Virus record (IMG/VR): IMGVR_UViG_3300017988_000572
Coordinates: 1-35,619 of that record
Reading direction: 5' to 3' (one strand)
Length of the DNA: 35,619 nt
From: a virus
Lineage: Duplodnaviria; Caudoviricetes
The first letter of the stretch is position 1; each line of letters starts with the position of its first letter. The notes beneath the pieces are model-generated. The model searched no databases. It saw nothing but the letters and a program-made list of their open reading frames with translations, and was not told the origin of the DNA. The translations under genes were made by a program, and so were the position numbers. Positions 1,684-22,172 of the stretch are shown here, in pieces.

Positions 1684-4600
1684 ATGGTCGCCTTCCTGCG
1701 CAGGCTGCATCTGGCATTGCACGCCCGTTTTCTCCGCTACTTTCGCACTCGCGAGGTGGTGAAGGCCTATTCCCTGATGCACGCCGAAGAGATGGCCATC
1801 ACGCCGATCCAGAACTGGCCGATGATGAAAGCCAGGCAGGCTCAAGAGATCAGGCAGGTGAAGGCTGGAAAGCTGGACATTGTAGACCGCAAGAGCTGGG
1901 CGTTCCCCTATCTGCCTTCGAGCGTGCAACGGCTGTCGATGCCGGTGATGAAGTCAACCCCTTACAATCTGCGCCGTTTCTCACGCACGCCAGTCGCCCG
2001 GCGCGCCATCAACCTGATCAAGAACTCAGTGACCGCACAAACCTGGGACATTAGACCAATCGACGGTGCGGCGGTCGAGGATGAGGACGAGCAGAAGGCG
2101 CGGATAAAAATCGCCAAGGGTCTTTTCAAGCATCCCAATAACGTAGACTCGATGCAGTCTTGGATGGAGATGGGCATCGAGGACCTTTGCTGCTTCGGCG
2201 CCTTCGCTTCTGAGATTATGCTGACCATCGATCCTGAGCGGCCGGTGAAGATGTGGGCGATGGATGTGTCTACGGTCCGCATCTTCGTATCCTGGTCTGA
2301 GTCCACTACCGATCTGCCGCACTACGCACAGATGACCGGACTACAGGGCGAGCGTGGAGCGATCCTGTTCTACGACGATGAGATCATGTACATCAAGGAC
2401 AACCCCGCCACCGACAATCCTTTCGGCCTGGGCAAGATGGAAGTGGCCTTCCAGCAGCTGAACGATTTGCTGGGTGTGCAGAGAATGGCTGGAATGGCTG
2501 GAGCGGATCAAGTCCACAAGTGCTTCCCCGGAGACACCGAGGTATTGACGCGGCGCGGATGGATGGCTTGGCGTGATGTGGGAGACGATGAGGAATTCGC
2601 CACACGCAGCTCGGATGGCAAGCTGCAGTGGCAGCGCGCTCTCGGATTTGTGCGCGAACAGCACGACGGAGACATGATCCAGTTCCGCAACCGGGAACTG
2701 ACCATTACCGTCACACCGAATCATAGGATGTATGGGCAGCGCTTCACTAAGGACTGGAAAACGGGGAAGCGTGTGGCCGAGCCTATCGGATTCATTGAAG
2801 CGCGTGAGCTGTTTGATGGCGTCGCAAACCGCCCGGGTAAGGGATGGAGAGGAGCGGACAAGAAGGAACGGTCGCTCTTCGACTTCAGGATTCCGACAAG
2901 GGCTACGTGGGAAGACGGCGTTTTGCCGGAGCCTGTCTGCCGTGTCGGGACAAAGACATTCGACTGGGAGGATTGGGCGGCGTTTCTTGGCGTCTGGATT
3001 GCCGAGGGTTCGTGCATGAAGGCGAGCGGAGAGAAGCCGAACAACGGAGAGTACCGCATACAGGTTGCGCAGTCGAAAAAGGCCAACCCGTCAAAATACG
3101 AGAAGATCAAGCACCTTCTAGGGCGCATGGGTTTTGCACACCAAGCAAAATCCGACCGCTTTGTTTTCAGTGACCACGATGTTTGGGCATATCTGTCCGG
3201 TCTGGGAGACAGTCATACCAAATTCGTTCCTCAGTGGATAAAGGATGCCCCCACGCCCATTATCCAGGCGTTCTTTGACTGGGCTATGCTGGGCGACGGA
3301 ACTGTCCGTGGGAAGAAGCGGACGTACTATACAGCCAGCGCGCGTCTAGCTGGCGATATGCAGGAGCTGTTTCAAAAGATAGGCTCCAGCGCTGCGGTCA
3401 AACCTTATCTCGACGGGCGCAGTCAGATGTACGCTGTCGAGGAGATGCTGCGACCTGAGTTGAGCATTATCCCTGCCGGTTGCCGAGGCAAGGCGCGCAC
3501 GCCGAAGCGGATTCCGTATAGCGGCATGGTTTATTGCGCGATGGTTCCGAATGGGACGCTCTATTGCCGTGAAAATGGATACGCGTTCTTCACAGGCAAC
3601 ACATGGCTATGGTGGGAGCAGCCGCAAAGTGATTCGGCGTACCAGATCGTGCGCCGGCACATTCAGAACGAACTCGAGGGACAGGCCAAGGTTTCGATCA
3701 TCGGCGGCATGAAGAAGCCGGAAGTCCTCGAGATCACCCCTGTCACCGAAGAGGACCTGCTGCTCAACTGGCAGGAGATGATGATTCGCATGGTAGCCAA
3801 CGCCTTCGACATGACCGCGATGGCGCTGGGAGTCGAGCATGATGTGAACCGGGCCGTCGGCGAAGTGCTCAAGGACCAGGACTTCAGATCGGCTGTGGTG
3901 CCGATGGCCAAGAGAGTGCAGGAAGCATTCACGCGTAAGGTTCTGCATGAGGCGCTGGGCTGGCGTGACCTCGAATTCGCGTTTCTGCAACTCGACGACC
4001 CCGACCTCGAAACCAAGACCGACATGAATGCGCGGATGTACTCGGCCAATGCCCTGACCCCGAACGAGTGGAGGATCAGTGTGGGCAAACAGCCATTGAA
4101 GAGCCCGTTTGGCGACATGACCCAGTTCGAGTCCATGATGCTTAACCAGGAGCTGATGGCTGAGATTCAGAACCGGCAGCAAGAGCAGAGCATGAACCGC
4201 CAACAGCAACAGCAGCTGCCGGGAAGTGGTGGTGGGTATCCGCCAGGTGGTGGCGGCCAGCCCTACCAGAAACCGATTTCGCAGGGCGAGATTTCACGCG
4301 GCGGGCAGATCGAGTCGCCACGGCCGCTGATGCTGCCTAAGTTCCCCATCGCCGGTTCCAAGTGGAATGCGAGGGAGATTGCGAGAATGCCGGTCAACGA
4401 TTTGGCCGACCGGATCGATGGCGGAGAACTGCCGCCAGCGAAGAGCCTGCTTCTGGACATGGACGATCAGGAACCAAACATCCTCGAGCAGATGGCCGAC
4501 GAGGTGAAGGAATACTTCAAGTACGTGCTGCAGGAAGACGAGCAGGACGATGCTGATGAGACACCGGACCAGTATTTGCAGAGCTGGCTGAAGAAGCAGC

Positions 4601-4770
4601 GCAAGCGTGTGAACAAGAGGAAGGCCCGTTCCGACGACATGACCCAGTATTTGCAGGACGTGAACCAGAGGTGGCGTATGGCGACGCCGTCGAAGCCTGG
4701 AGCCAAGGCTTATCGGGCTGTGAAGAATCCAGGCAAGCCGGGCACGCCGCCCGCGGCACGTTCTTTGTAA
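1684..4770 (+). CDS. Portal protein (HK97-type) containing an intein; 668 aa after splicing, long C-terminal extension
   Basis: Portal-like motifs IMYIKDNP..DNPFGLGKME, VANAFDM..LG and LTPNEWR..VGKQPL...GD; first gene of the head operon. Confidence 0.92.
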   Translation: MVAFLRRLHLALHARFLRYFRTREVVKAYSLMHAEEMAITPIQNWPMMKARQAQEIRQVKAGKLDIVDRKSWAFPYLPSSVQRLSMPVMKSTPYNLRRFSRTPVARRAINLIKNSVTAQTWDIRPIDGAAVEDEDEQKARIKIAKGLFKHPNNVDSMQSWMEMGIEDLCCFGAFASEIMLTIDPERPVKMWAMDVSTVRIFVSWSESTTDLPHYAQMTGLQGERGAILFYDDEIMYIKDNPATDNPFGLGKMEVAFQQLNDLLGVQRMAGMAGADQVHKCFPGDTEVLTRRGWMAWRDVGDDEEFATRSSDGKLQWQRALGFVREQHDGDMIQFRNRELTITVTPNHRMYGQRFTKDWKTGKRVAEPIGFIEARELFDGVANRPGKGWRGADKKERSLFDFRIPTRATWEDGVLPEPVCRVGTKTFDWEDWAAFLGVWIAEGSCMKASGEKPNNGEYRIQVAQSKKANPSKYEKIKHLLGRMGFAHQAKSDRFVFSDHDVWAYLSGLGDSHTKFVPQWIKDAPTPIIQAFFDWAMLGDGTVRGKKRTYYTASARLAGDMQELFQKIGSSAAVKPYLDGRSQMYAVEEMLRPELSIIPAGCRGKARTPKRIPYSGMVYCAMVPNGTLYCRENGYAFFTGNTWLWWEQPQSDSAYQIVRRHIQNELEGQAKVSIIGGMKKPEVLEITPVTEEDLLLNWQEMMIRMVANAFDMTAMALGVEHDVNRAVGEVLKDQDFRSAVVPMAKRVQEAFTRKVLHEALGWRDLEFAFLQLDDPDLETKTDMNARMYSANALTPNEWRISVGKQPLKSPFGDMTQFESMMLNQELMAEIQNRQQEQSMNRQQQQQLPGSGGGYPPGGGGQPYQKPISQGEISRGGQIESPRPLMLPKFPIAGSKWNAREIARMPVNDLADRIDGGELPPAKSLLLDMDDQEPNILEQMADEVKEYFKYVLQEDEQDDADETPDQYLQSWLKKQRKRVNKRKARSDDMTQYLQDVNQRWRMATPSKPGAKAYRAVKNPGKPGTPPAARSL
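2521..3600 (+). mobile_element. Intein with LAGLIDADG homing endonuclease (360 aa)
   Basis: Block A K|CFPGDTEVLTRRGW, block B TVTPNHRMY, endonuclease motifs FLGVWIAEGS and WAMLGDGT, block F/G YSGMVYCAMVPNGTLY...FFTGN|T (+1 Thr at 3601). Confidence 0.95.
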
Positions 4771-9563: not shown

Positions 9564-9599
9564 GAGCAGCGACGTAGGCATCGCCTTTGCTCCTAGACC

Positions 9600-9643
9600 A
9601 GCTTGCTGTTGAGCACGCCCGATGGCTGGGGCATTCTGACATC
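9600..9643 (+). promoter_or_regulatory. Putative late promoter copy 2 (protease-capsid operon)
   Basis: AGCTTGCTGTTG 9600-9611; TTGAGC, 17-nt spacer, CATTCT (9632-9637); 6 nt then ATG 9644. Confidence 0.75.
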
Positions 9644-11083
9644 ATGAGTCGCGGACTACAGCTTGTTGAGGCTTCGCTTAAAGCCGTTGAGGCTGGCGCT
9701 GGCCATCCCAACAAGATGCGCGTTCGCGGAATGCTTGTGCAGCTGGACACCCCCAGCAATAAGCCACCCAACGGCGCCCAGGGGCATCGCATTTTGGTGC
9801 CGATGGAAGTCGCCAAGCGACGCCTGAAGACTTTGGTGGGGATGGGCCTGAACTACTCGCCCGACCTCGATGCGCACGCCCAGCGGCGTAAGGTGGGCGT
9901 GATCGACAAGGCCTGGATCGCGGGCAACGAATTGATGATCGAGGGTCATGTTTGGAAGCACGACTTCCCCGAGGCTGAGAAGGACCTGAAGCAGTCCGGG
10001 CTGGGCATGAGCATGGAGCTGGGAGAGGTTCGGGTAGACAACCCCAACGCCGATGTTTGGACCCTGGATGACTTTCAATTTTTAGGGGCAACTATCTTGT
10101 GGCGGAAATCCGCGGCCTACAACAACACGCGGGCGATTGCGGCGCGAGCCGAGCAAAGGAGAGGAAGCATGTCGAAGACGGTGAATAAGACGGGGAAAGC
10201 GTCTCGCGAGCAAGGTGAGCGTGTGGCGCAGATCGCCGCCGAAGCTGCCGCTGGTGCTGTGCGTAAGGGCACCTCGAAGATTCTGGCGGTCCTCGAAACG
10301 CAGACGAATGCGCTGGCGGAAATCACCGCCCAGCAAGAGGAGTTCGATAGCCGTCTTTCGGCGATCGAAACCGGAACCACCCACCTCAGCGCTGATGCCG
10401 ACGATGATGTGAGCGCAGCCGGCAAGAAGGCGTCGAGCAGCACCACCACCTCCTCATCGACAGCGAGCGAGGATGGAGGCTGGAGCGCGGCTGAGGACGA
10501 CGCTGCGGCGGCTGCCAAAGCCTCCAGCAGCACCACTTCCTCATCGACGGCAAGCGAGGATGTAGGCGCCGAGGGCGTGGACAAGGGCGACCTCGACGAG
10601 GAAGACACCGACCTTGGGCAGAAAGCTGGCCACGCCAACGAGGACGCAGAGAACCGCGGCAGCGATGGCGCCGAGGACGTTGTGAAGAAGGTCGGCTCTA
10701 CCGTGTCGAGTGCGCGGATGCGGGCGCTGAAGACTGCTAACAAGCAGCTACAGCGGCAGCTTGCAGCCAGCCAGCAACAGATCGCGAAGCTGGAGCACAA
10801 GCTGGGCCACAAGATCGAGAAGCTGCAGGCGCAGGTGACCGACGCTGCTCAGAGAATGAGCCGCAGGTCGCTCTCACCTGAGATCACGGCGATGATGGCC
10901 AAGGCCAACATCGATCCGGTTGACATGTTCCGCTCCGGCAGCAAGCTGAGTGTGGCTGAGGTGGACGGTGTTATCAGCTCCAGCGGCATTCCCATGAATC
11001 CGGTGGACCGGGTCGCCTGGAAACAGGCTTTTCTCCACGCTGGTCTGATGGACGAGGGCCGTGTGGAGCGTAGCCCCCGCTAG
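9644..11083 (+). CDS. Prohead (capsid maturation) protease fused to scaffold
   Basis: Lies just before the capsid gene; LDAH and LGMSMEL give candidate catalytic His/Ser; KVGVIDKAWI.GNELMIEGHVW pattern; acidic and coiled-coil C-terminal half. Start 9644 chosen from promoter geometry. Confidence 0.8.
   Translation: MSRGLQLVEASLKAVEAGAGHPNKMRVRGMLVQLDTPSNKPPNGAQGHRILVPMEVAKRRLKTLVGMGLNYSPDLDAHAQRRKVGVIDKAWIAGNELMIEGHVWKHDFPEAEKDLKQSGLGMSMELGEVRVDNPNADVWTLDDFQFLGATILWRKSAAYNNTRAIAARAEQRRGSMSKTVNKTGKASREQGERVAQIAAEAAAGAVRKGTSKILAVLETQTNALAEITAQQEEFDSRLSAIETGTTHLSADADDDVSAAGKKASSSTTTSSSTASEDGGWSAAEDDAAAAAKASSSTTSSSTASEDVGAEGVDKGDLDEEDTDLGQKAGHANEDAENRGSDGAEDVVKKVGSTVSSARMRALKTANKQLQRQLAASQQQIAKLEHKLGHKIEKLQAQVTDAAQRMSRRSLSPEITAMMAKANIDPVDMFRSGSKLSVAEVDGVISSSGIPMNPVDRVAWKQAFLHAGLMDEGRVERSPR
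10169..11083 (+). CDS. Nested in-frame scaffold protein (internal start)
   Basis: AAGGAGAGG immediately upstream of in-frame ATG 10169 at the end of the protease domain, as in lambda C/Nu3 and Mu I/Z. Confidence 0.65.
   Translation: MSKTVNKTGKASREQGERVAQIAAEAAAGAVRKGTSKILAVLETQTNALAEITAQQEEFDSRLSAIETGTTHLSADADDDVSAAGKKASSSTTTSSSTASEDGGWSAAEDDAAAAAKASSSTTSSSTASEDVGAEGVDKGDLDEEDTDLGQKAGHANEDAENRGSDGAEDVVKKVGSTVSSARMRALKTANKQLQRQLAASQQQIAKLEHKLGHKIEKLQAQVTDAAQRMSRRSLSPEITAMMAKANIDPVDMFRSGSKLSVAEVDGVISSSGIPMNPVDRVAWKQAFLHAGLMDEGRVERSPR
10425..10563 (+). repeat. Tandem duplication encoding KASSSTT(T)SSSTASED twice
   Basis: CAGCACCAC...TCCTCATCGAC.GC.AGCGAGGATG occurs twice. Confidence 0.85.
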
Positions 11084-11119
11084 TAGGTTGGCGGACATCA
11101 ACAGGAAGGAGACTTGAAT

Positions 11120-12178
11120 ATGAAAGGCGTTGCGCAATTTGTTGATCCGTCAAACAGCCCAGTTCTGACCGCGATTATGGCGGCGGGAAGGGGCCGGAGT
11201 GCCGAAGGTGTAGGCAATATCTCGGCTGCGGCGGATTACCTGGCTCCCGGCGCGATTGAAGTGAATCGGTACGCGACGGAAATCGTGGACATGGTGCGGA
11301 GGCGTTTCGTGCTCGGCCAACGCATCAACCAGACGCTGGCAACCGGCCAGCCTCACCGCTACTTCGAGCAGATTGCAATTCCGTCTGCTGTGCCGGCGAA
11401 CCCGCGGGCTTTGACCACCACCGCATCTCAACCCGTAAGGCAAGAGCGCGTGGTTGGCCTCAAGGCCATCACCGCGCAGATCAACTACGGGCTGTTCGAT
11501 GTGGAGATCAACCAGCAGCAGGGCCAATTCGCCTACCTCGAGGCGAAGGACCTCACCGACACCGTGGACGGCGTGCTCAAGCTGCACGACTCGACGTTGT
11601 GGACCGGTAACGACACCGATCTGTTTATCGCTACCAGCACCCAGTATTACGGCATCAGCGGCCAGATTTTGGCTGGCGCTGCCTCTTCGCTGGGACTTGG
11701 AGCGGTGTCGATCCCGGCCAGCGGTTCGCTGGTGGATGGATACAAGACCGCGGTGGCTGCGATGGCCAATCGGCAGGACTTTGAAGTACGGCCGACCGCC
11801 ATCTACGGCAACCCCACGCTGCTCAACCTGTTCGACCAGGAAGTTTACGACAACAACCGCCAGCTGTTCTACAACCAGACAGAGGTGCTGCCGGGCGTCG
11901 TAGTGAATGGACTGCCGACGCAGGTGGGCATTCTGCCTCTGGTAAGCGACTCAGCTCTGGTGAACATCAGCGCTGGCGGCGGCAAGAACCAGTACACCGG
12001 GTTCATTCTCTCCGATGTGGACATGATCAAGTATGCGTACTTGACCGACCCGCTGCCGAGAGTCTTCCAACTCGGGTTGCTGGGCAACCTCAGCTCGCAG
12101 TACGTGGTGGTGAAGTTCGGTGCCCCGTTTGTCGAGGGACCGGGCTACGCGCACCAGGCTGTGCTGACCATCCGGTAA
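11120..12178 (+). CDS. Major capsid protein (HK97 fold expected)
   Basis: Follows the scaffold; ~352 aa; AAGGAG RBS 8 nt before ATG 11120; LWTGND..YYGISGQI and PTAIY.NP motifs; strong codon bias; terminator directly after. Confidence 0.88.
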   Translation: MKGVAQFVDPSNSPVLTAIMAAGRGRSAEGVGNISAAADYLAPGAIEVNRYATEIVDMVRRRFVLGQRINQTLATGQPHRYFEQIAIPSAVPANPRALTTTASQPVRQERVVGLKAITAQINYGLFDVEINQQQGQFAYLEAKDLTDTVDGVLKLHDSTLWTGNDTDLFIATSTQYYGISGQILAGAASSLGLGAVSIPASGSLVDGYKTAVAAMANRQDFEVRPTAIYGNPTLLNLFDQEVYDNNRQLFYNQTEVLPGVVVNGLPTQVGILPLVSDSALVNISAGGGKNQYTGFILSDVDMIKYAYLTDPLPRVFQLGLLGNLSSQYVVVKFGAPFVEGPGYAHQAVLTIR

Positions 12179-12197
12179 GAGCAGCGGTAGTGAGTGT

Positions 12198-12230
12198 AAA
12201 GCCCCGGGTTTAGGCTCGGGGCTTTTGCTT
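12198..12230 (+). terminator. Intrinsic terminator after the capsid gene
   Basis: AAAGCCCCGGGT-TTAG-GCTCGGGGCTTT followed by TGCTT. Confidence 0.88.
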
Positions 12231-12240
12231 AGGAGAGCTG

Positions 12241-12510
12241 ATGAACGTCGCTGACCTAATTGCGATACGCTCCCTCAAAGTTGACCAATCCCACATCAAG
12301 GGTGAGGCTGGGACCGGCTACGAGCCGCCCGGCAAGAAGGGACCGTTCCGGTGTGACAACTGCGAATACTTTTCCGGCCCCGGCGGCAATACCTGCGGGC
12401 AGCGGACGATGATGAAGCTGTCCAAGCAGCCGCGGGTGAACAGTGGGCGCGTGATTGTCGATCCAGCTGGATGCTGTGAGATGATTTCGCGTATAGGGAA
12501 AGTGAAATGA
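12241..12510 (+). CDS. Small Cys-rich protein with HiPIP-like motif
   Basis: AGGAG RBS; Y....CDNCEYF.......C....VDPAGCC pattern; no Tat signal. Confidence 0.7.
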   Translation: MNVADLIAIRSLKVDQSHIKGEAGTGYEPPGKKGPFRCDNCEYFSGPGGNTCGQRTMMKLSKQPRVNSGRVIVDPAGCCEMISRIGKVK

Positions 12511-12561
12511 AGGCTGCTACGCATTGCCCGCAAGACCAACCACTGAACAAGGAGCCAATAC

Positions 12562-12732
12562 ATGTCATTTGTGATCGACAACTCGAAGGTTGAGGAGCTA
12601 CTCAAGTCAAGCAGTCCGCCTTACGCGCTTACTTACTCTCCAATGGTGAGCGAAAACTACAACGCAGAGCCTGTTTATGCTGATCTTCCGACATGCGAGA
12701 CATGCGCAGATGATCCGCTTACTGTGGAATGA
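12562..12732 (+). CDS. 56-aa acidic hypothetical protein (not in ORF track)
   Basis: AAGGAG 7 nt before ATG 12562; MSFVIDNSKVEELLKSS...LPTCETCADDPLTVE*; fills the intergenic gap. Confidence 0.6.
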   Translation: MSFVIDNSKVEELLKSSSPPYALTYSPMVSENYNAEPVYADLPTCETCADDPLTVE

Positions 12733-12795
12733 TCGCGACCTATATTGACTCTGGCGTTCGGGCAAGTACGGCCGTGATTGATCGTGTCGGGTAGG

Positions 12796-12839
12796 AGCTT
12801 GCTGTTGGCCTAGGAGCGACCAAGGGGCAATCTATGGGT
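12796..12839 (+). promoter_or_regulatory. Putative late promoter copy 3 (cargo/neck operon)
   Basis: AGCTTGCTGTTG 12796-12807; TTGGCC, 17-nt spacer, CAATCT (12828-12833); 6 nt then ATG 12840. Confidence 0.75.
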
Positions 12840-15800
12840 ATGGCCCTATCCTCGAGCGCCGCGGCCTCCCTACGGTCAAACCCGTTCGACCTTGAGCTGC
12901 TCCAAGCGCAGGTTGCGGCTGATCTGGAAGCCTTTGATCCTGATGAGGAACGTGATCCTCACGGCCGCTGGGTTCGTGGGATGCCCGAGCAGGGCGAGCT
13001 GTTCGAGAAATACCAGCAAAAGCAGTCGGACCGTATTGCGCAGGTGCTAAAGCGGGCTGCCGCCGACAAGAGAGTAGCCCAGGCCGCGCAGGAAGCTGCT
13101 ACGAGGGGTGACGCCCGCAATGATCCTGGTGTGACCACAGACGGACAGCACTACACTCCGCAGACCGACGACTTCAACAAGAGAGTGGCTGAAAGCTTTC
13201 TCGATCCCAAAGCCAAAGTGCCGGAGGGCAAGCAGCCGATCGCTGTGTTCATGCTGGGTAAGCCTGGAGCCGGTAAGAGTGCGATGATGGGGTCGTTGCG
13301 GGACAAGCTGCCGCCGATGGTGAACATCAACGCTGACGATGTGATGGACAAGCTGCCTGGGTACAAGGGGACCTTGGCCCAGGCCTATCATGAGTGGGGG
13401 TGCGACGTAGCGCGCCACTATCTCACGCCTGAGGCTTTGACCGGACACTACAACGTCAACTTTGATATGACCGACAATGTGTCTCGGCTGGAGCGGACCG
13501 CGCAAGAGTGCAAGCTGATGGGGTATCGGATTGTGGTGCTGCACGCGGATGTAGACACCGCGACCTCGGTCGAAAGAGCCTACAATAGATTTGTTGTCAA
13601 AGGGCGCTACGTTCCGCTTGATGTGGTCAAGAGCTACGGCGAGCGGCCGAAGCAAGCCTACGACCACATCAAGGCCAGCGGCATCGCTGATGAATGGAGG
13701 GAGTATGACACAACCGACGCAGGACTCGGACGAGCACGTGGCGGAGCGCCAGTCAGAGCAAGACTTGTCGAATCCGGCTACCGCACCCCTGGGCCGGTAC
13801 TCATCGGAGCCGAGCGAAGCCTGGGCACAGGCGCTGGAAGAGGGCGTTCACACCGCCTATCTCGACTGGTGCAAGAAACATCCCGAGCAAAAGTAGCGCT
13901 GCTGCAGGCTGCCAACGAGCTTGGAGTGCTGGCCTACAGCGACGACGAGGCTCGTGATGCTCATGGGGAATGGACTCGAGGCGATAGCGTAGAGGATTCC
14001 TATCAGGTGCTTGGGGAGCTGGGGAAGCGTGGGAAGAGCGCCGCGCTTATAACCGGCACCGGCAAGATTGGGATTGGAGATTCGCATCCTCATGTCGCCA
14101 ATTCGCTGGGATACGGGGATAAGAATGACCCATTTGGCGTGGACTGGGACCGCTTTTACGCTGATGGCGGCGTGCTTGTTCGGTATCGGCCATACAACGT
14201 GGACGTGAGTTTTGGAAGCCCCAACGAGGAAGACATGGATCGGGTGCGGAGCATCCTCGATGCCGTGCCTAATTCCGATGGAAATCACTACACGATGGAC
14301 TACTTTCAGCCTGGAGCGGACGGTAGATTCGCTATGGGCGATAAGCAGAACGTACTGCGGGCGATGAACCGCTGGCAGCGTGGGCTTGCTGGAGCGGGTG
14401 TGCAAGCCTACTCCGAAGACGAAGAGCGCGACGATCACGGCCGCTGGACCTCCGGCATGGACGCGAATCTGAAAGCGCTGTCCCGGACCGCTAAGGGCGA
14501 AGAGAGGCATTCAGACCGCCCCGGCCTGGCGAAGTCCGGGCAGGAGTTGGCCGACAAAGCCACCGACAATTTCCATAAAGCTGCCGAGTGGGTGTGGCAG
14601 AACCGCGAACTCGAGATGGACCGCAGCAATCTCCCCTACATCGTGACCAAGATCGGCGACATGGTGAATGAGGGGCTGCTGAAGCCCGGCCAGAGCTTAT
14701 GGCGCAATTATGAAGACCCCAAGCTGCACTACCCACCGGCCTCTGAGATCAAGGGTCTGATGCAGAACTTCTATTCCGAGCTGGCCGACCGGATCAAGTC
14801 TGGAGACGATCCTAAGGGCATCGCCGCCTGGGCCGAGCACGAGTTCAACGTGAAGATTCACCCGTTTTCGGATGGCATGGGCCGGGCTACGCAGCTGCTC
14901 AGCGGCATGATCCTGTTGCAGAAGGGGCATGACCTGCCGAAGTACGAAGGCCGCGACAGCTTCTACAAAAACATGACCGGGCCTGATTGGGAGAAATACT
15001 ACCGCGGCCTGTTCGGGGTCGAAGCATATAGCCCCGATGAAGAGCGTGATTCTCACGGTGAATGGACGAGTGGCGGGATTGTTTATCACGGCACCAGCTC
15101 TGCTGCTTTGAAGCAGATCGCCAAAGAAGGACTGATCCCAGGTAAAGGACAAGGCGGCGACGCGTGGGCCAGGAAGTTTGGACGTGAAAGGGGTATGGGG
15201 TCGGCTCCAGCCGAGATGCTGGGGAGGGCCAAGAGCATATTCTTCACACGCGACCGGATCAACATGGTGAACTTTGCTGCGGCCGCGGCAGAGGTGAACA
15301 AGGGATCGCTTCCTGTCATTCTTAAAGTGAACCTGCCAGCTGATGTGGCGAAGAAGATGAAGCAAGACGAGTTCAGCGGCCCCGGGAACTGGCGCTACAC
15401 ACATACCATTCCTGCAAAATACATCACCGCCTACAGGCCTGCCACGAAATTTGAGGGTGGTTACTTCCCGCCTGCTGAGGGAACAACCTGGGGTAAATGG
15501 AAGAAGTTCGACCCGAGCCAACTGGCGGCATCCGGCACCGTTACGTTCTACACCTTCATTCTTTGCCATCCCGGATTGGAAGCCTACAGTCCCGACGAAG
15601 CGCGCGACGCCCACGGCCGCTGGGGCAACAGCGGCGACGCTCCTGAGAAATGGATCGGCTTTGACCTCGACGGGACCTTGGCCCACTACGAACATTGGGA
15701 GGGACCGGGGAAGATTGGCGCGCCGCTCAAGGACACTGAAGTTTGGAAAGCGCTCGAGGATCACCTGGCTGCTGGAGATCATGTCAAGATTATGACCGCT

Positions 15801-18011
15801 CGCGTGGCCCACGATCCCGGCGGCGTGGAGCGCAAAGCTATTCAGGCCTGGTGCAAGAAGCGCATCGGCCGCGTCCTGCCGATCACCAGCGTAAAGGACC
15901 AGGGGCTGACCAAGCTGTACGACGACCGCGCCGTGGCTGTGGCCAAGAACAGCGGCAAGCTGCTGAACGATCCGACGAAGATCAAAGCCAGGGCTGTAGA
16001 AAAGACTGGATGCGTCGCCTGCGAGCGTGGCGATTGCGAAATGCACGGATACAGCCCTGATGAAGAGCGAAATGCTCACGGTGAGTGGAGCCAAGGGGGC
16101 GACGAAGAAAAAGACCTGACACCGCAGCAGACCGAGCAGGAGATGCTGAATCTTTATCACGGCACCGCCTCCGACGCGCTGCGTTCGATTGCCAGAGAAG
16201 GGCTGGTTCCGGGTAAGGGACAGGGAGGAGATGCAGCGGCGATTGCTGCTGGACTGCACGGGATTGCTGTGCATTCGCTGATAGCGCGCCCGAAAAGCAC
16301 TTATTTTACGACTTCAGAAAGGGACGCCAAGTTTTTCGCTATGATCGCCGCTGCTGTCAACCCTGGATCGAAGCCCGTGGTATTGCAGGTGCGCGTGCCC
16401 CGCGCGCTAGCCGACACGTTCAAGGCTGACGAGCTGAACAAGCTGGACGGGGTAGCGCTGCGTGATGAAAAGCCGCTCCCTCCCAAATACATCGCCGCTT
16501 ATCAGACGCCGCCGATGGAATGGACGCCCAGCGGTTCCAGCATAGAACAGATTGTGAACCGCTGGAACAGTTCCTGGAAGAGATTCAGCCCAAGCGTGTT
16601 TGCTGCTGCCGATGGCTACGTGACCTATTACAGCTTCATCCTGCATCATCCCGGCGACGTGGAGGCTTACTCTGACGACGAGGAGCGGGATGAGCGTGGG
16701 CGCTGGGTGAAGGTCGGCTCCGAGCTTTTTGTTTCGCCTAACACCGGCGAATCGACCTTGGACGAGGCACTGAGCGAGATGAACAGCGACCGGCAGAAGA
16801 GCTTCATTGGACTGAGCAATCGTGTGGTGGGAGCCGTTGCCCGTTCCAGCGCTGTTCATTCTGCGATCGGCGTCTGGGCTGACGGCGCTGAGACCTCAGC
16901 TAGCATTGACCTGCCGAAGAGTGTTGACGCCGACACCAGCCGCTACATCGGCGCGCTGCTGGCCAAGGCCGCTGCGCAGAAGGCCTATCTGAATTTCGTG
17001 CGCGATCCACAGGGCAGCAACCTACTTTACGAGTGCAAGACTGGTGACGATCTGGGTACTATAAACAAGAAGCTGACCGCTGCTGGGATTGGTTTTCATA
17101 CCATGATCCCTGGTGGGGGTGGAACCGAAGTCCGGGTGTTCGATGCCGACGGCTCCCAGGCTGCAAAGATGGAGTCCTTCGCCAAGGACAACGATCTGCA
17201 TGTCGAGGTCAGCCGCGGCACCGGAACCTTTGTGGGGAGTGAAGAAAGCCGTGAAGAAGGAGCTAACGAGTATGACCAAATCATCCAGCGGTACGAGCGA
17301 GAACACCCCGACAAAGCCTATCGAGATTCCCTCCAGTTTCGAGGATGTGACGAGCAAGGGCGGAACCGTGGTGATTGTGGGAGGAGTGCCTACGCCCAAG
17401 AAGAAATCTTCACCCTCGATCTAGGAGCGTTAGAGGAGCGCATTCACGCCGCCATTTCGACTGCTGAAGTGGTGAGGCGCATCCGTGGTCTTAGGACCGT
17501 CCCCGAACCCAAAGGCAAGTGGTCTACGATGCGGCGGGCCAAGCAGCGCCGCTACAACACCGCGTCCGTGTGGAAAGAGAATCCCATGACCCGCATCGAC
17601 AAGCCTGCCGATGCTGAGGCCTTCAAGCGCCTGCCGGTCAAGATACGCGATCACATTGTTGACACCGCGCCGCTGCGGACCTTCAACCCGAAAGACCTCA
17701 AGAGCAATCAGCCTGCTGTGTATCAGGCCGACCTCGAGCACTTTGCTCATCACGGCCACGATCCTGAGCCTGTGATTGTTCTGAAGACGCGAGTTGGGTT
17801 GTACGTTCACAACGGCAATCACCGCGCGACCGTAGCCATGCTCTCGGGCCGCCGCATCAAAGCCAGGTATGTCGATCTCAGCAAGGTCAAGGAAATTCAG
17901 GCTATGATCCCAATAATTGACGGTATGCTGGAGGCGAGGAACATCTTCGCGCCCGAGGAATCGGCTGGGCGCAGGTTGTCATTGGCGGTGAATCTGGCGG
18001 TGGAGCAATGA
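12840..18011 (+). CDS. Polyvalent multi-effector polyprotein: Zeta-toxin-like kinase, unknown, Fic, ART-like, HAD, ART-like, unknown, ParB/Srx-like
   Basis: P-loop GKPGAGKS plus INADDV; HPFSDGMGR; YHGT twice; GFDLDGTL; VHNGNHRATVA; modules separated by a 16-aa repeat. Start 12840 or 12834. Confidence 0.88.
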   Translation: MALSSSAAASLRSNPFDLELLQAQVAADLEAFDPDEERDPHGRWVRGMPEQGELFEKYQQKQSDRIAQVLKRAAADKRVAQAAQEAATRGDARNDPGVTTDGQHYTPQTDDFNKRVAESFLDPKAKVPEGKQPIAVFMLGKPGAGKSAMMGSLRDKLPPMVNINADDVMDKLPGYKGTLAQAYHEWGCDVARHYLTPEALTGHYNVNFDMTDNVSRLERTAQECKLMGYRIVVLHADVDTATSVERAYNRFVVKGRYVPLDVVKSYGERPKQAYDHIKASGIADEWREYDTTDAGLGRARGGAPVRARLVESGYRTPGPVLIGAERSLGTGAGRGRSHRLSRLVQETSRAKVALLQAANELGVLAYSDDEARDAHGEWTRGDSVEDSYQVLGELGKRGKSAALITGTGKIGIGDSHPHVANSLGYGDKNDPFGVDWDRFYADGGVLVRYRPYNVDVSFGSPNEEDMDRVRSILDAVPNSDGNHYTMDYFQPGADGRFAMGDKQNVLRAMNRWQRGLAGAGVQAYSEDEERDDHGRWTSGMDANLKALSRTAKGEERHSDRPGLAKSGQELADKATDNFHKAAEWVWQNRELEMDRSNLPYIVTKIGDMVNEGLLKPGQSLWRNYEDPKLHYPPASEIKGLMQNFYSELADRIKSGDDPKGIAAWAEHEFNVKIHPFSDGMGRATQLLSGMILLQKGHDLPKYEGRDSFYKNMTGPDWEKYYRGLFGVEAYSPDEERDSHGEWTSGGIVYHGTSSAALKQIAKEGLIPGKGQGGDAWARKFGRERGMGSAPAEMLGRAKSIFFTRDRINMVNFAAAAAEVNKGSLPVILKVNLPADVAKKMKQDEFSGPGNWRYTHTIPAKYITAYRPATKFEGGYFPPAEGTTWGKWKKFDPSQLAASGTVTFYTFILCHPGLEAYSPDEARDAHGRWGNSGDAPEKWIGFDLDGTLAHYEHWEGPGKIGAPLKDTEVWKALEDHLAAGDHVKIMTARVAHDPGGVERKAIQAWCKKRIGRVLPITSVKDQGLTKLYDDRAVAVAKNSGKLLNDPTKIKARAVEKTGCVACERGDCEMHGYSPDEERNAHGEWSQGGDEEKDLTPQQTEQEMLNLYHGTASDALRSIAREGLVPGKGQGGDAAAIAAGLHGIAVHSLIARPKSTYFTTSERDAKFFAMIAAAVNPGSKPVVLQVRVPRALADTFKADELNKLDGVALRDEKPLPPKYIAAYQTPPMEWTPSGSSIEQIVNRWNSSWKRFSPSVFAAADGYVTYYSFILHHPGDVEAYSDDEERDERGRWVKVGSELFVSPNTGESTLDEALSEMNSDRQKSFIGLSNRVVGAVARSSAVHSAIGVWADGAETSASIDLPKSVDADTSRYIGALLAKAAAQKAYLNFVRDPQGSNLLYECKTGDDLGTINKKLTAAGIGFHTMIPGGGGTEVRVFDADGSQAAKMESFAKDNDLHVEVSRGTGTFVGSEESREEGANEYDQIIQRYEREHPDKAYRDSLQFRGCDEQGRNRGDCGRSAYAQEEIFTLDLGALEERIHAAISTAEVVRRIRGLRTVPEPKGKWSTMRRAKQRRYNTASVWKENPMTRIDKPADAEAFKRLPVKIRDHIVDTAPLRTFNPKDLKSNQPAVYQADLEHFAHHGHDPEPVIVLKTRVGLYVHNGNHRATVAMLSGRRIKARYVDLSKVKEIQAMIPIIDGMLEARNIFAPEESAGRRLSLAVNLAVEQ
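12924..16706 (+). repeat. Seven dispersed 48-nt copies of peptide tag [LVM]xA(Y/F)SxDE(E/A)RDxHG(R/E)W
   Basis: Copies at 12924, 13926, 14400, 15018, 15576, 16041 (MHG variant) and 16659; a related copy at 18071-18121 in the next gene. Confidence 0.95.
13705..13896 (+). CDS. Overprinted +1-frame small gene (63 aa), candidate immunity protein for the Zeta domain
   Basis: GGAGGGAGT-ATG; begins where the Zeta domain ends; the host frame there is an Arg/Gly-rich linker. Confidence 0.6.
   Translation: MTQPTQDSDEHVAERQSEQDLSNPATAPLGRYSSEPSEAWAQALEEGVHTAYLDWCKKHPEQK
17272..17424 (+). CDS. Overprinted +1-frame small gene (50 aa), candidate partner of the preceding module
   Basis: AAGGAG 9 nt before ATG; same GAGTATGAC start context as 13705; host frame Arg/Gly-rich. 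Confidence 0.5.
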   Translation: MTKSSSGTSENTPTKPIEIPSSFEDVTSKGGTVVIVGGVPTPKKKSSPSI

Positions 18012-21000
18012 GTCTTGCTGCGATGGTAGAGGGTCTGGCACGGGACGCTGTCGAGGCCGCGCTGCGTGCGATCGAGGCTTGGAACGAGCAGGACCACCCG
18101 CGTGATGATCACGGCCGCTTCACCGACAAGGGCGGAGTGCCTGCTAGGCACACACCCGCTGGACATGCTGCCAAGCTGGCCAATGCCGGGTATCGCCTGT
18201 ATCACGCTGGAGTCGGCCCGTCTGATGCCGACGAATGGCATTACCACGGCAAACTGAACGGCGACGGTGTTCTTGTGAGGCCTTACGGCCATGGCGGCGC
18301 CAAGTACGCGCATCAGGTGAAGCTGCAGGGAGTGGATAAGGACGGCAACACCTTCTACAAAGGCCACCAGATCAACCAGCTGCTGCAGGAAAACGCTAAG
18401 CGGCATCCACCTGAGCCTGGCGTCGCCCCACCAAAGCCCGTGGTGCCGCGGGGAGCCCAACCGGCCAAGGCCGCGCCAGCGAAAGCGGCCCCTGCCGTAC
18501 AGCAGATGCTGCTTCCGGGGCAGCAGCAGAAGATCGATAACGTTGTGAGCCCGGCCGTGCAGCAAAAACTTGCTGCTGCCGGGTTTACAGCCGTGAGGGT
18601 GAACCAAGATGGAAAAGCTGTATTCAACCAGGGTGATGTGCAGCTGCAGATCGGAAAGGGGGATGACGGCAAGCCGAACTATCAGATTTTGCAGAGTGGA
18701 AAGGCTTTGGGGGGTGCGGTGGCTCATCGACCCTTCGATGCTCAAGGCAATCTGCGGCCAGACATTGCCTGGGCCGTCAACAAAGGAGCAGCCAACTTTG
18801 GACTGCCGGTGAAGAAAGGCGCCGCACCGCCGAATGGACTGGTATACGGCAACTCGGCCAAAGCCCTGGCCACCGCTGGATTCATTTATCGAGGAGTAGC
18901 TACGGCGTCGGATGGCTCCCGCCGCGCCTGCTATGAGACGCCGGACAAATCCGCGCAGATGTATGTAGGGAAATATGTCGGGTACAACTTGTTTGTGAAC
19001 GGAAAGCAGGTGAATTCCGGTGGCCAGCTTTACGACATCAATCACAACGGTGAGCCCTATCTGAAACAGGATATTCGCGAGGCGGCTGGACTGCCTAAGC
19101 CTAAATTTGATGTGGACCCGCAGCAAGTGTACCAGAGCCTCATCAGCAAAGACGATCGCAGCGCCCTGGATCGAGCTGGATTTACGGTGAAGGACGTGAA
19201 GTTCAACGAAGGCGGCGACCCCACCCTCGTTCTGAGCAAGGGCGATGTACAGATACGGAGGGCAGCCGGGAAAGACTTGAAAGTATTCCAGAATGGTATA
19301 GAGGTCAACGCGCCTGGGGGGCGCGGGTGGAGATTTCGAGACCAGTGGGGGAACCTGGACAAGCCATTGCGGGACTTGATTGGGATGCCCGATCCCGATC
19401 TGAAAATTCCTACCCATCTTCCTTCATCGGATAAGACGTCGCCGCCTGTTAATTTAGTTGGTGATGAGGGAAACAGACTGCTGACCGGACGTGGTGGTTT
19501 TACTTATGTGGGAGTGGGGCGCGACAGCCAAGGCGGCCAATATGCGAAGTATCAGAACGCTAACGGCGTGACGCTGCGGGTCAACGATGCTGGTAAGACC
19601 ATCGCCGTGGATAAGAACGGCAATAAATTAGGAGAGTGGACCGGCGTTCCGTTTGAACGCAACAACAACGGCCAGAGATACCTGCTGCCCGACTTTCGCC
19701 AGGCCGTAGGCATTCCTGATAGGCCCTACAACGGCGCCAACGCCGAGCAAGACTACAAAAGAGCAACAAGCGCCGTTCAACGCGACGCCCTGGCCAAAGC
19801 TGGCTTTGTACTTGATGGCGCGAAGTACAACGAGAAGGAAGAGCCGGTTGTTGTACTGCGCCGGCCCGACGGCGCTGAGATGCAGATCAACAGCGCCGGA
19901 TACCAGCTCAAGCCTAAGGGACAGCAGGCAGCGAATCCTGTGCAGCCGATGTATCAGTTGATGGACAAGTTCGGTTTTTTGAACCAAAACATTCGACAGA
20001 CTCTTGGGCTGCCTCAGCCGGATTTGAGGCTGCCGGTGACCAACCCCGACAAGGACACACGACCAGACTCGCGGCTTGTGAGTCGCAGCGCCGACGAAGC
20101 CTTTCAAAAAGCTGGTTTTGTTTATATGGGCAACGGCCGCGACAAGGACGGCAACGACTTTGCTCAATATATTCATCCAGCTGGAGCTATTCTGCGGAAG
20201 CAGGATGGAGGAGACTTCTACATCACCCCGCCTGGCGGTAAGGAAGTGGCGCTGAACGATGACCATCCTTATGAGCGCGACTCGAACCGGCAGGCAAAGT
20301 TGAAGATGACGGTGCGTGAGGCTGCTGGACTGCCGACCTGGTGGTTGTCGGCTCCGCCATCCAAGACTCCGCCTGTGCCACAAGCCACGCCACAGCGGCC
20401 GATTCCAAGCCCCAGCATCCAGCCTGATCTGCCTATGACGCTGCCGCCGCACGACGAGATGAATGCTATTGAAAGAGAACTGGCGCAGGGAAAATCGTCG
20501 GGCAGCAGCCGCATGGGCGGAGGCGTGAACGAGACTGTTAAGGTGCAGCTCGAGAACGGCATGAAGTGCGTTTTTAAGCCCAACGACGGTGAGGACAAAT
20601 TCTGCGCTGGTGGCTGGAACATCGAGGTGAAAGCCGGAGCCCAGGCCATGAGAGAGGTAGCCGCGTATCAGGTAGCGAAGCTGGTGGGGATGAAGGACCT
20701 CGTGCCACCGACCGTCTACCGCAACCAGAACGGCAAGATGGGGATCATTCACCCCTTTGCTGAGGGAGAAACGGCCGGAAACGTCGGAGAGGCAAAGCGT
20801 TACGACGGCGACCGGGATTGTGCCCGCTGCGCCGCCTTTGATTACGTGATTGCCGATGGCGACCGCCACAACGGCAACTGGATTTGCCAAGGAGACGGCC
20901 CTAAGATTCAGCTGATCGATCATGGGATGTGTTTTCCCAACGGCGACAAGATGCAAAATGTAAGGGGATTTTTAGTGAAGATGAAAAATGACAAGGACGA

Positions 21001-21169
21001 CATCAACGGTCTACGGCCGAGGGACATGGCGGCACCGTTTGTGGATAAGAAAAACGAGATCATCGGCAAAATGTCAAAGCTGGGATTCAGCAAGGAAGCT
21101 ATTCATGGAGTAGCGGCGCGGATCGATGACCTTGCTACCGCTAGGAAGTGGGAAGATTTGAAGTATTGA
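18008..21169 (+). CDS. Tagged repeat protein with C-terminal PI3/PI4-kinase/HipA-like kinase domain
   Basis: N-terminal IEAWNEQDHPRDDHGRF; GGGVNET, VFKP, REVAAY, VPPTV, DRHNGN and IDHG kinase motifs; ATGA-coupled. Confidence 0.88.
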   Translation: MSLAAMVEGLARDAVEAALRAIEAWNEQDHPRDDHGRFTDKGGVPARHTPAGHAAKLANAGYRLYHAGVGPSDADEWHYHGKLNGDGVLVRPYGHGGAKYAHQVKLQGVDKDGNTFYKGHQINQLLQENAKRHPPEPGVAPPKPVVPRGAQPAKAAPAKAAPAVQQMLLPGQQQKIDNVVSPAVQQKLAAAGFTAVRVNQDGKAVFNQGDVQLQIGKGDDGKPNYQILQSGKALGGAVAHRPFDAQGNLRPDIAWAVNKGAANFGLPVKKGAAPPNGLVYGNSAKALATAGFIYRGVATASDGSRRACYETPDKSAQMYVGKYVGYNLFVNGKQVNSGGQLYDINHNGEPYLKQDIREAAGLPKPKFDVDPQQVYQSLISKDDRSALDRAGFTVKDVKFNEGGDPTLVLSKGDVQIRRAAGKDLKVFQNGIEVNAPGGRGWRFRDQWGNLDKPLRDLIGMPDPDLKIPTHLPSSDKTSPPVNLVGDEGNRLLTGRGGFTYVGVGRDSQGGQYAKYQNANGVTLRVNDAGKTIAVDKNGNKLGEWTGVPFERNNNGQRYLLPDFRQAVGIPDRPYNGANAEQDYKRATSAVQRDALAKAGFVLDGAKYNEKEEPVVVLRRPDGAEMQINSAGYQLKPKGQQAANPVQPMYQLMDKFGFLNQNIRQTLGLPQPDLRLPVTNPDKDTRPDSRLVSRSADEAFQKAGFVYMGNGRDKDGNDFAQYIHPAGAILRKQDGGDFYITPPGGKEVALNDDHPYERDSNRQAKLKMTVREAAGLPTWWLSAPPSKTPPVPQATPQRPIPSPSIQPDLPMTLPPHDEMNAIERELAQGKSSGSSRMGGGVNETVKVQLENGMKCVFKPNDGEDKFCAGGWNIEVKAGAQAMREVAAYQVAKLVGMKDLVPPTVYRNQNGKMGIIHPFAEGETAGNVGEAKRYDGDRDCARCAAFDYVIADGDRHNGNWICQGDGPKIQLIDHGMCFPNGDKMQNVRGFLVKMKNDKDDINGLRPRDMAAPFVDKKNEIIGKMSKLGFSKEAIHGVAARIDDLATARKWEDLKY
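18545..20340 (+). repeat. Six ~95-100-aa repeats alternating A/B, (AB)3
   Basis: Units begin with L..AGF (or GGF) and end with L...(I/V/F/L)R..(A/I/V/L)G(L/M/I)P, the first unit more degenerately; A units contain D..GNL/GFL, B units contain F.Y.G.(GRD).DG...A.Y. Confidence 0.8.
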
Positions 21170-21176
21170 GGTGGGT

Positions 21177-22172
21177 ATGGACCTGAGCTGCACCTTTTTA
21201 GAGACAACCGACAAAGGGCAGAGACCTGTATTTAAGATTCTGTCGCGTGACGGGATTATCACAGGCCGGCTGATCAATCCCCGCTCCGCTATGATGATGG
21301 ACGCGGTTTTGGCTGATGATCCGCTGCGTATCGGGAGCATGGCTTTTCCGAAGTCGAATCCCGAGGCCTATATGCGGGCTCTTCCGCACGCCTACAGCGG
21401 CGAGCGTCTGCGGGCGCAACTACAGGACGCGCGAGGGAAAGATATACAAGCTGTGTCGCCTCCGGGCTGGCGTGGCACGACCGAACACATGAAGGACCAT
21501 CCCGAGATAACCAATCCCTATGCGCTGGCCTGGTCGATGTATAAGAAAGGCGACAGCTCGCATAAGGCCGAGCCACCGGATACGCCGCGGGTGAAGGTGT
21601 CAAAGAAGACGAAGAAGGCGAGGCAGAAGGCGCTCGAGGAGAAGGATGTGAAGACCGCTGCTGATGGTTTTGGACCGGGAGAGATCGCGCGGAACGTGAT
21701 CCGCGAAAAGGCTCTTGGCGTGGAATCGAAAGCCTACAAGCTGGCTGGATACACCAGCTTTCAGGGGCTGCCGATCAGCATCGAGAACCGAAAGGGAGAT
21801 ATTCGTAAGGGCCTCGATCACGACGGCACACCCTGGTCCGTGAAGATGCCATGCGACTACGGCTATATCAAAGGCACCCAGGGCAGCGATGGCGATGAGG
21901 TGGACTGCTTCATCGGGCCACTCAAGAACGCCAAGTTTGCCTACATCTTTCACATCGAGAACGACGCCGACCATACTTACGATGAGGACAAGTGTTTTCT
22001 GGGATTTTCATCGGACGAAGCGGCGCGCAAAATCTTCAATCTGGCCTACGACAACGCCGGCGAGATATTCCATTCCGTGACCATGCTGCCTATGCACGAG
22101 TTCATTGAGAAGGTTTTGCATACCCACGATTTGAAGAGACCGGGTAAGATACATGCGGAGGTGAAGGCATGA
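21177..22172 (+). CDS. Tripartite protein: small N-terminal domain, PPGW...NPYALAW module, inorganic pyrophosphatase-like (InPase) domain
   Basis: FQGLPISIENRKG..R.G....G..W...M..DYGYI.GT.G.DGDEVDCFIGP...YDEDK.FLGF; start ATG 21177 or GTG 21171. Confidence 0.82.
   Translation: MDLSCTFLETTDKGQRPVFKILSRDGIITGRLINPRSAMMMDAVLADDPLRIGSMAFPKSNPEAYMRALPHAYSGERLRAQLQDARGKDIQAVSPPGWRGTTEHMKDHPEITNPYALAWSMYKKGDSSHKAEPPDTPRVKVSKKTKKARQKALEEKDVKTAADGFGPGEIARNVIREKALGVESKAYKLAGYTSFQGLPISIENRKGDIRKGLDHDGTPWSVKMPCDYGYIKGTQGSDGDEVDCFIGPLKNAKFAYIFHIENDADHTYDEDKCFLGFSSDEAARKIFNLAYDNAGEIFHSVTMLPMHEFIEKVLHTHDLKRPGKIHAEVKA

Follow-up and report, generated by a model that had tools for sequence, protein, structure and literature searches.

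Within a long polyprotein gene of a tailed virus, the last codons of a Zeta-like kinase domain also carry a Shine-Dalgarno sequence and a start codon for 63 open codons in the +1 frame. Is this reading frame a gene, how did it come to lie inside another gene, and what would its product do to the kinase? The window analyzed here is the whole stretch of 35,619 nucleotides from IMG/VR record IMGVR_UViG_3300017988_000572 (Duplodnaviria; Caudoviricetes), a linear virus record that is about 30% complete. It covers a block of tailed-phage genes running from head to tail, in which portal, scaffold, tape measure, and connector matches were obtained in Pfam and PHROG searches. We take the gene at 11114-12178 as the major capsid gene by its position, without a family match. 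The features of the locus are as follows.

12834-18011, plus strand: polyprotein ORF of 1725 aa, directly 3' of the major capsid gene, with seven tag-delimited modules and a C-terminal domain.
12984-13781, plus strand: P-loop kinase domain, Zeta-like, encoded in the main frame (aa 51-316; Pfam PF06414, E 9e-16).
13696-13700, plus strand: Shine-Dalgarno GGAGG, within the Zeta W-R-E codons (TGG AGG GAG).
13705-13896, plus strand: nested ORF of 63 aa in the +1 frame relative to ORF 12834-18011, with ATG at 13705 and TAG at 13894-13896.
13935-13973, plus strand: next module tag, YSDDEARDAHGEW, one of the seven tags in the polyprotein gene.

The sequence-only reading had described GGAGG-GAGT-ATG as opening a 63-aa acidic +1 ORF that extends from the Zeta C-terminus to just before the next tag, and this description is accurate. 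The elements occupy 13696-13896, the peptide has a pI of 4.6 and a net charge of -7, the ATG sits in the TAT GAC codons of a Zeta Tyr-Asp pair, and the stop codon lies 39 nt 5' of the tag. With the GAGT spacer at 13701-13704, the spacing between the Shine-Dalgarno sequence and the ATG is short (4 nt). The anti-Shine-Dalgarno duplex of the nested start was calculated at -9.8 kcal/mol, on par with ordinary genes of the phage, and the start region falls at the 92nd percentile for unpaired bases. A sigma-70 promoter or a terminator was not found in 12100-14100.

A leave-one-out codon-phase model trained on the other genes preferred the +1 frame to the main frame by 55.7 nats over the nested ORF. 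Among 605 segments of 192 nt from 22 genes (mean -87, sd 30), only seven were positive for the +1 frame, and these were confined to the nested ORF and to 17272-17424. The GC content by codon position over the nested ORF is 0.67/0.46/0.75 in the +1 frame, similar to the remainder of the gene, and 0.73/0.66/0.45 in the main frame. When the main-frame protein was recoded with random synonymous codons 20,000 times, the Shine-Dalgarno sequence, the ATG, and 63 open codons appeared together in 0.7% of the recodings. The codon-phase scan gave no nested +1 signal in the genes at 18008-21169 and 21171-22172. The former encodes a second tagged protein of 1053 aa with repeats and a C-terminal PI3/PI4-kinase-like domain, and the latter, 3' of it, an InPase protein.

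The nested start is covered by contigs from three other runs without an indel, and contig X2 spans the entire ORF; an assembly frameshift was thus ruled out. RNA-run contigs (X3) also cover the region, although contigs cannot report strand, level, or translation. A single SNP, 13870 T>C, was found in two runs and in a near-identical protein (P0003); it changes V to A in the main frame and C to R in the +1 frame and lies outside the conserved core of the peptide. A chance ORF was ruled out by the codon-phase signal and the rarity among recodings, together with the codon conservation at the start that is described next.

The scans returned 41 Zeta-like loci, among them the window (L002) and a repeat of L001 (L004). 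Five loci besides the window (L001, L003, L005, L006, and L027) are close, with Zeta domains that are 38-59% identical; the others are at most 35% identical. At all six close loci, the window included, the ATG occurs at the same base of the W-R-E/K-Y-D codons behind GGAG. The Tyr codon at the nested ATG is TAT and the Arg codon at the Shine-Dalgarno sequence is AGR, each in 6/6 loci, and the local usage of these codons is 0.30-0.51 and 0.11-0.29, respectively. TAT and TAC are mixed at the five other invariant Tyr columns of Zeta. One codon is kept in only 4 of the 36 invariant Zeta columns, two of which are the Y-D of the nested start. Four-fold sites are 25-48% identical among the close loci, and synonymous sites are near saturation. 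The peptides share the motif P-x-x-x-W-x-x-(A/G)-(L/V)-x-E-(G/A), and those of the window and L001 are identical at 18 of 23 positions in the core.

The frame-specific substitution pattern, which the sequence-only reading had offered as a check, came out on the side of the nested frame. Over the overlap, the pN/pS ratio was 0.47-0.72 in the +1 frame and 1.02-1.54 in the main frame for all five pairs compared, using alignments guided by the +1 frame. The +1 value for L005/L006, where the peptide gene is free-standing, was 0.48. In frame-neutral ungapped blocks, most mismatches fell on the third position of the +1 frame in 14 of 15 pairs, the pairs not being independent of one another. The weakest contrast was obtained for the window and L003, both fully nested (0.72 in +1 and 1.02 in the main frame), and the main frame over the overlap in these two may carry some constraint. 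Both frames are open, the nested frame has its own start signal, and selection acts on the nested frame. By these sequence-level measures the nested ORF is very probably a real translated gene, whatever its function. The relationship between the two frames can be followed with three further features.

13761-13781, plus strand: last beta-strand of the Zeta fold, polyprotein aa 310-316 (E260-266 of the AlphaFold model).
13782-13934, plus strand: G/R-rich linker of the main frame, running through the small gene, with a pN/pS of about 1.0-1.5 over the overlap.
13792-13857, plus strand: conserved core of the nested peptide, residues 30-51, with P36 and W40 invariant in 7/7 rows.

The main frame had previously been read as off-frame text over the whole nested ORF. 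The first ~26 overlapped main-frame codons do not conform to that idea, since in the model they include the last Zeta beta-strand, a part that is dual-coding with the variable N-terminus of the nested peptide. Beyond the dual-coding start, the main frame is, by its substitution pattern, a weakly constrained linker. The conserved core of the peptide begins just 3' of the last Zeta strand and is probably one amphipathic helix.

Three arrangements are found among the close loci. The first has a Zeta stop 16-20 codons into the overlap and a free peptide gene of 58-64 aa; it is seen in L005, L006, and L027, for which gene callers list the peptide as a separate protein. A free gene after Zeta was among the things that the sequence-only reading had suggested searching for. 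In L001, Zeta likewise stops inside the overlap, and the peptide continues into a tag and the next domain to give a 299-aa tagged protein from the same ATG. In the window and L003, the main frame has no stop and the peptide is wholly nested. Because Zeta stops within the overlap at four close loci and reads through at two, the overprinted part is probably the linker rather than the small gene. The earlier notion of an overprinted gene is therefore better turned around, the comparison suggesting that the small gene is older. The Zeta tree (37 rows, unrooted, with rough bootstrap values) contains at least three, and about eight, changes between stop and read-through, and we infer that the main-frame linker was extended over a pre-existing small gene more than once. 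In the older layout the Zeta stop would have been located 16-20 codons inside the partner gene. Loss of this stop from the main frame, with run-on to the next tag, would have produced the fully nested state.

The proposal that a small gene is tied to Zeta while the polyprotein reads through it is borne out by the fixed position of the gene, the +1 substitution pattern, and the relatives with a Zeta stop inside the overlap. The proposal that the pair was captured whole from a host toxin-antitoxin locus is not: the close loci belong to viral or metagenomic head modules, the gene is at the 3' end of the toxin, and no antitoxin or immunity family was matched by the peptide or its relatives in Pfam, PHROG, NCBIfam, or PADLOC, where a query of 63 aa limits the sensitivity. 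A profile search with the peptide gave four matches, of which three are its own members and the new one (P0154) is 54% identical. A single-sequence search with the peptide returned no homologue, neither the peptide nor module 7 had a usable match in the ESM Atlas, and scans of IMG/VR with single proteins gave no match. A scan of IMG/VR with the peptide pattern returned one locus, and this adjoins Zeta. The association of the peptide with Zeta is partly circular, because most of the close loci were found via Zeta.

The Walker A lysine (K148) and the catalytic-base aspartate (D168) of the Zeta domain are unchanged in 70/70 aligned rows. The AlphaFold model of the domain has a pLDDT of 95, and its best Foldseek matches are zeta/PezT structures with TM scores of about 0.55-0.6. 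Because these two residues are kept and zeta/PezT structures are closest, the domain is likely an active small-molecule kinase. The UNAG-contact residues of zeta toxin are Thr118, Arg120, Thr128, and Glu100 (PMC3062530; articles are cited here by PMC number). In a profile alignment at about 15% identity, Thr118 is kept as T213 and Thr128 is probably kept as T222, and Arg120 and Glu100 correspond to N215 and R194, respectively. Two of the four named contacts thus appear changed, and relatives of the domain are found in viruses of archaea, which lack peptidoglycan, so the substrate need not be UDP-GlcNAc.

The polyprotein contains the Zeta kinase, an unknown domain, a Fic domain, two Tpt1/KptA-like domains, and two further unnamed domains. 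The Fic and Tpt1/KptA-like assignments are weak matches, and HAD-like and ParB-like are labels that we presume for domains of this protein. Seven copies of a tag with the consensus YSxDExRDxxGxW stand between the domains and presumably direct packaging or cleavage. In P0003, module 2 is missing with a gap that runs exactly from tag to tag, and P0004 has a different set and order of modules; the modules therefore behave as cassettes. The residue before the tag in this phage is Ala (xEA-Y, xLA-Y, xQA-Y), with two exceptions (Gly or similar), and in the tags examined in L001 and P0002 it is Lys or Glu (FK-Y, EK-Y, KE-Y). These differences could reflect the specificity of the head protease of each phage. 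The scaffold gene (9587-11083) encodes repeated (S/E)A-A/G motifs, and the portal gene (1684-4770) has a large insertion (aa ~280-645) with a LAGLIDADG-like match and C/N-T ends typical of an intein.

On balance, and with modest confidence, we propose that the 63-codon frame is a conserved small gene, likely internally initiated, whose helix likely binds and inhibits Zeta in the virion-building cell. The position of the polyprotein gene after the capsid gene suggests that virions contain its product and carry it into the host. The tag-delimited polyprotein would be late-expressed head cargo, with cleavage at the tags or close to them and injection into the next host. The Zeta kinase would poison the producing cell, and an untagged partner made from the same mRNA would keep it inactive and stay behind. 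Nesting would keep the toxin and its partner in one cassette during module shuffling. Inhibition is favored because a toxin-fold enzyme that is made in bulk late needs restraint, and because a small acidic gene fixed at the 3' end has the layout of an immunity gene. Small antitoxin proteins restrain zeta toxins by blocking their ATP site (PMC3062530), and small ORFs that follow 89% of MuF toxin genes were interpreted as immunity genes (PMC5576092). Against an inhibitor are the absence of an antitoxin-family match for the peptide, the three of 12 read-through ORFs that have no +1 stretch (see below), and the Fic and Tpt1/KptA-like modules of the window polyprotein, in which no sustained +1 stretch was found. 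The tag fusion in L001 implies a packaged peptide and is a poor fit to an inhibitor that stays behind.

The same tag fusion, together with the in-frame acidic tails described below (L030, P0049, and P0067), fits co-packaging, and the peptide could be a real partner of Zeta that is no inhibitor but a chaperone, a packaging or ejection helper, or an activator co-delivered with the kinase. Such a helper would account just as well for all of the sequence evidence that the gene is real. We consider it unlikely, if worth keeping in mind, since the peptide is untagged in the window, L003, L005, L006, and L027 and immunity genes are usually laid out in this way, as small acidic genes that follow a toxin-fold domain (PMC5576092). 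It is improbable that the gene has nothing to do with Zeta and hitch-hikes on a strong late mRNA, for example, as a small protein that acts on the host or in assembly. In favor of this reading, adjacency alone says little where genes are packed as tightly as in phages, and the peptides that follow distant Zeta domains lack clear homology to the window peptide (2.3-6.8 bits for the haloviral ones). Against it, the position of the start codon within Zeta codons is unchanged across 38-59% identity, and unrelated-looking peptides are present in the same slot of distant Zeta proteins, as would be expected of fast co-evolving partners.

The internal start may once have driven the next tagged cargo gene, which would leave the ORF as a relic of an N-terminus or as a translational coupling device, as the 299-aa tagged protein of L001 might suggest. 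This account is highly doubtful, given that the motif is conserved with a low pN/pS even where the ORF is free-standing (L005/L006) and that the window ORF ends at 13896 without a clear coupled start. A programmed +1 frameshift that yields a Zeta-peptide fusion and truncates the polyprotein, or an ORF that is untranslated, is most improbable: natural in-frame fusions of Zeta to an acidic tail exist (L030 and P0049), but the Shine-Dalgarno sequence and ATG are kept at 6/6 loci, a frameshift at the ATG would leave Zeta without the last strand of the model, and other assemblies are without an indel.

Twelve ORFs with more than 70 codons after Zeta were chosen for comparison, with L014 (a near-duplicate) and L038 (a weak match) excluded. 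A +1 coding-phase stretch directly follows Zeta in nine of these, which represent fewer than nine independent lineages because three come from cultured haloarchaeal viruses that are related to one another. The only other positive +1 segments in the nine ORFs are a second nested ORF (window and L003) and one near the start of L016. The stretch is absent from L029, L032, and L030, and in L030 there is an in-frame acidic tail instead. The cultured haloviruses each carry an unannotated acidic +1 ORF of 39-44 aa, nested after Zeta.

KC292029.1:72114-72233: HCTV-1 gp109, at L042:4683-4802 in locus coordinates.
KC117377.1:69727-69846: HVTV-1 gp115, at L043:4764-4883.
KC292027.1:71916-72050: HCTV-5 gp114, at L044:4788-4922.

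These peptides score only 2.3-6.8 bits against the window peptide family, and homology to it is not claimed. The role of haloviral zeta toxins is described as unknown in a review (PMC4284463). Further +1 ORFs that look unrelated are nested after distant Zeta domains at L041:4572-4754, L008:4569-4826, L013:4626-4793, and L016:3279-3467. A back-translation test was applied to the top 30 of 43 read-through proteins, two of which served as positive controls; the anchor was misplaced in some rows (P0007 and P0018). Of the 28 protein-only relatives, just four (P0001, P0006, P0009, and P0014) have a linker compatible with the window peptide family in the +1 frame at z >= 4.5. At distant loci with a terminal Zeta, an ORF, acidic in many cases, usually begins close to the stop, which is weak evidence given the tight packing of genes. 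In-frame acidic tails on Zeta were noted at L030:4553-4781, at the C-terminus of P0049, and in P0067. They resemble a free small ORF at L007:4621-4737 and are possibly a fused partner. In L017, L019, L023, L024, and L026, the ORF after Zeta has another conserved acidic N-terminal segment with the motif PxNEW.GDEYDD, fused to a protein of ~240 aa, which is similar to the fused state of L001.

The second nested ORF of the window lies at the end of module 7.

16710-17330, plus strand: seventh module, a tandem ferredoxin-like fold in a confident model.
17272-17424, plus strand: second nested +1 ORF of 50 aa, preceded by AAGGAG at 17257-17262, with its ATG in E-Y-D codons.

This ORF is kept in L003 (6516-6662) with the motif EDVT.KG..VVIVGGV. 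The mismatches between the window and L003 are spread evenly over the codon positions and favor neither frame. Module 7 has a weak structural likeness to phage SAM lyase (Z of 7.9 and 7.1), at background level and a lead only. Its identification as a SAM lyase was rejected, since a Z of 7.9 does not rise above the background range, higher scores were obtained with RND-pump domains, and no sequence match was found. The module is common in Zeta-bearing polyproteins (P0004, P0068, P0084, P0087, P0113, P0119, P0128, and P0144), and G-x-W-x-x-G-x-E and Q residues are conserved in it.

The pair can be compared with several known systems. Epsilon/zeta and PezA/PezT (PDB 1gvn, 3q8x, and 2p5t) share with it the zeta kinase fold, the Walker A lysine, the catalytic aspartate, and a small partner gene on the same mRNA. 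In epsilon/zeta, however, the antitoxin gene is upstream of the toxin (PMC10532202), whereas here the partner is nested out of frame at the 3' end of the toxin, no sequence likeness to epsilon or PezA was found, and the toxin is a module in a virion polyprotein. Judged by the reversed gene order and the lack of antitoxin homology, the nested pair is not a canonical epsilon/zeta member. The MuF polymorphic toxins (PMC5576092) also have a toxin-fold domain in a phage head module followed by a small ORF, which is the terminal layout of L001, L005, L006, and L027, but the window has an internal toxin with a completely nested small ORF. Pfam and PHROG searches of 12834-18011 gave no MuF domain, Mu gpF-like genes are near the Zeta gene in HCTV-1 and HCTV-5, and the word zeta is absent from the main text of PMC5576092.

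Phage polyvalent proteins (PMC5512222) are likewise multi-domain conflict proteins with cassette-like recombination, and zeta-toxin-like kinases are named among them. The window polyprotein has several conflict-type domains (Zeta, Fic, and Tpt1/KptA-like) that vary among relatives, and it lies in a phage structural region with an InPase gene nearby. The accessible part of PMC5512222 does not mention a nested partner, and the word overlap occurs 0 times in its main text. In the Rpn systems, the toxin is blocked by a small protein (RpnS or RpnL) whose translation starts inside the toxin gene (PMC10327210). RpnS is in frame and corresponds to the toxin C-terminus (PMC10327210), whereas the frame here is +1, the sequence is unrelated, and the system is viral. 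A similar layout is that of the spanins of phage lambda. The Rz/Rz1 genes have a +1 embedded arrangement. Across spanins, the partner genes may be embedded, overlapped, separated, or fused (PMC6139136), which parallels the nested, overlapped, and fused states described above; spanins are membrane lysis proteins, though, and here the host frame over the partner core is a weakly constrained linker. By analogy, the nested pair would work like a toxin-immunity pair and be laid out like Rz/Rz1, outside epsilon/zeta, the MuF toxins, and Rpn. No description of a nested Zeta partner was found in the literature searched (open papers, including the main text of PMC5512222).

Tentatively, and short of an even chance in our estimate, tailed viruses of bacteria and archaea may hard-wire the inhibitor of each cargo toxin in another frame, with its start in the last codons of the toxin and a linker that reads through it. 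Toxin and immunity would then move as one tag-bounded cassette, and an unannotated class of inhibitors, of Zeta kinases and perhaps of the SAM-lyase-like module, would be hidden in G/R-rich linkers, including those of HCTV-1, HVTV-1, and HCTV-5. The locus is an unusually well-supported natural gene within a gene, the origin of which can be traced via the overlapped, fully nested, and fused states of its relatives. With the unannotated +1 ORFs of the three cultured haloviruses, the question can be put to a direct test. An inhibitory role of the peptide would explain how toxic head cargo can be expressed without early death of the producer, and the peptide would then supply new inhibitors of Zeta. 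The G/R-rich linkers of phage polyproteins can be small genes that were missed by annotation.
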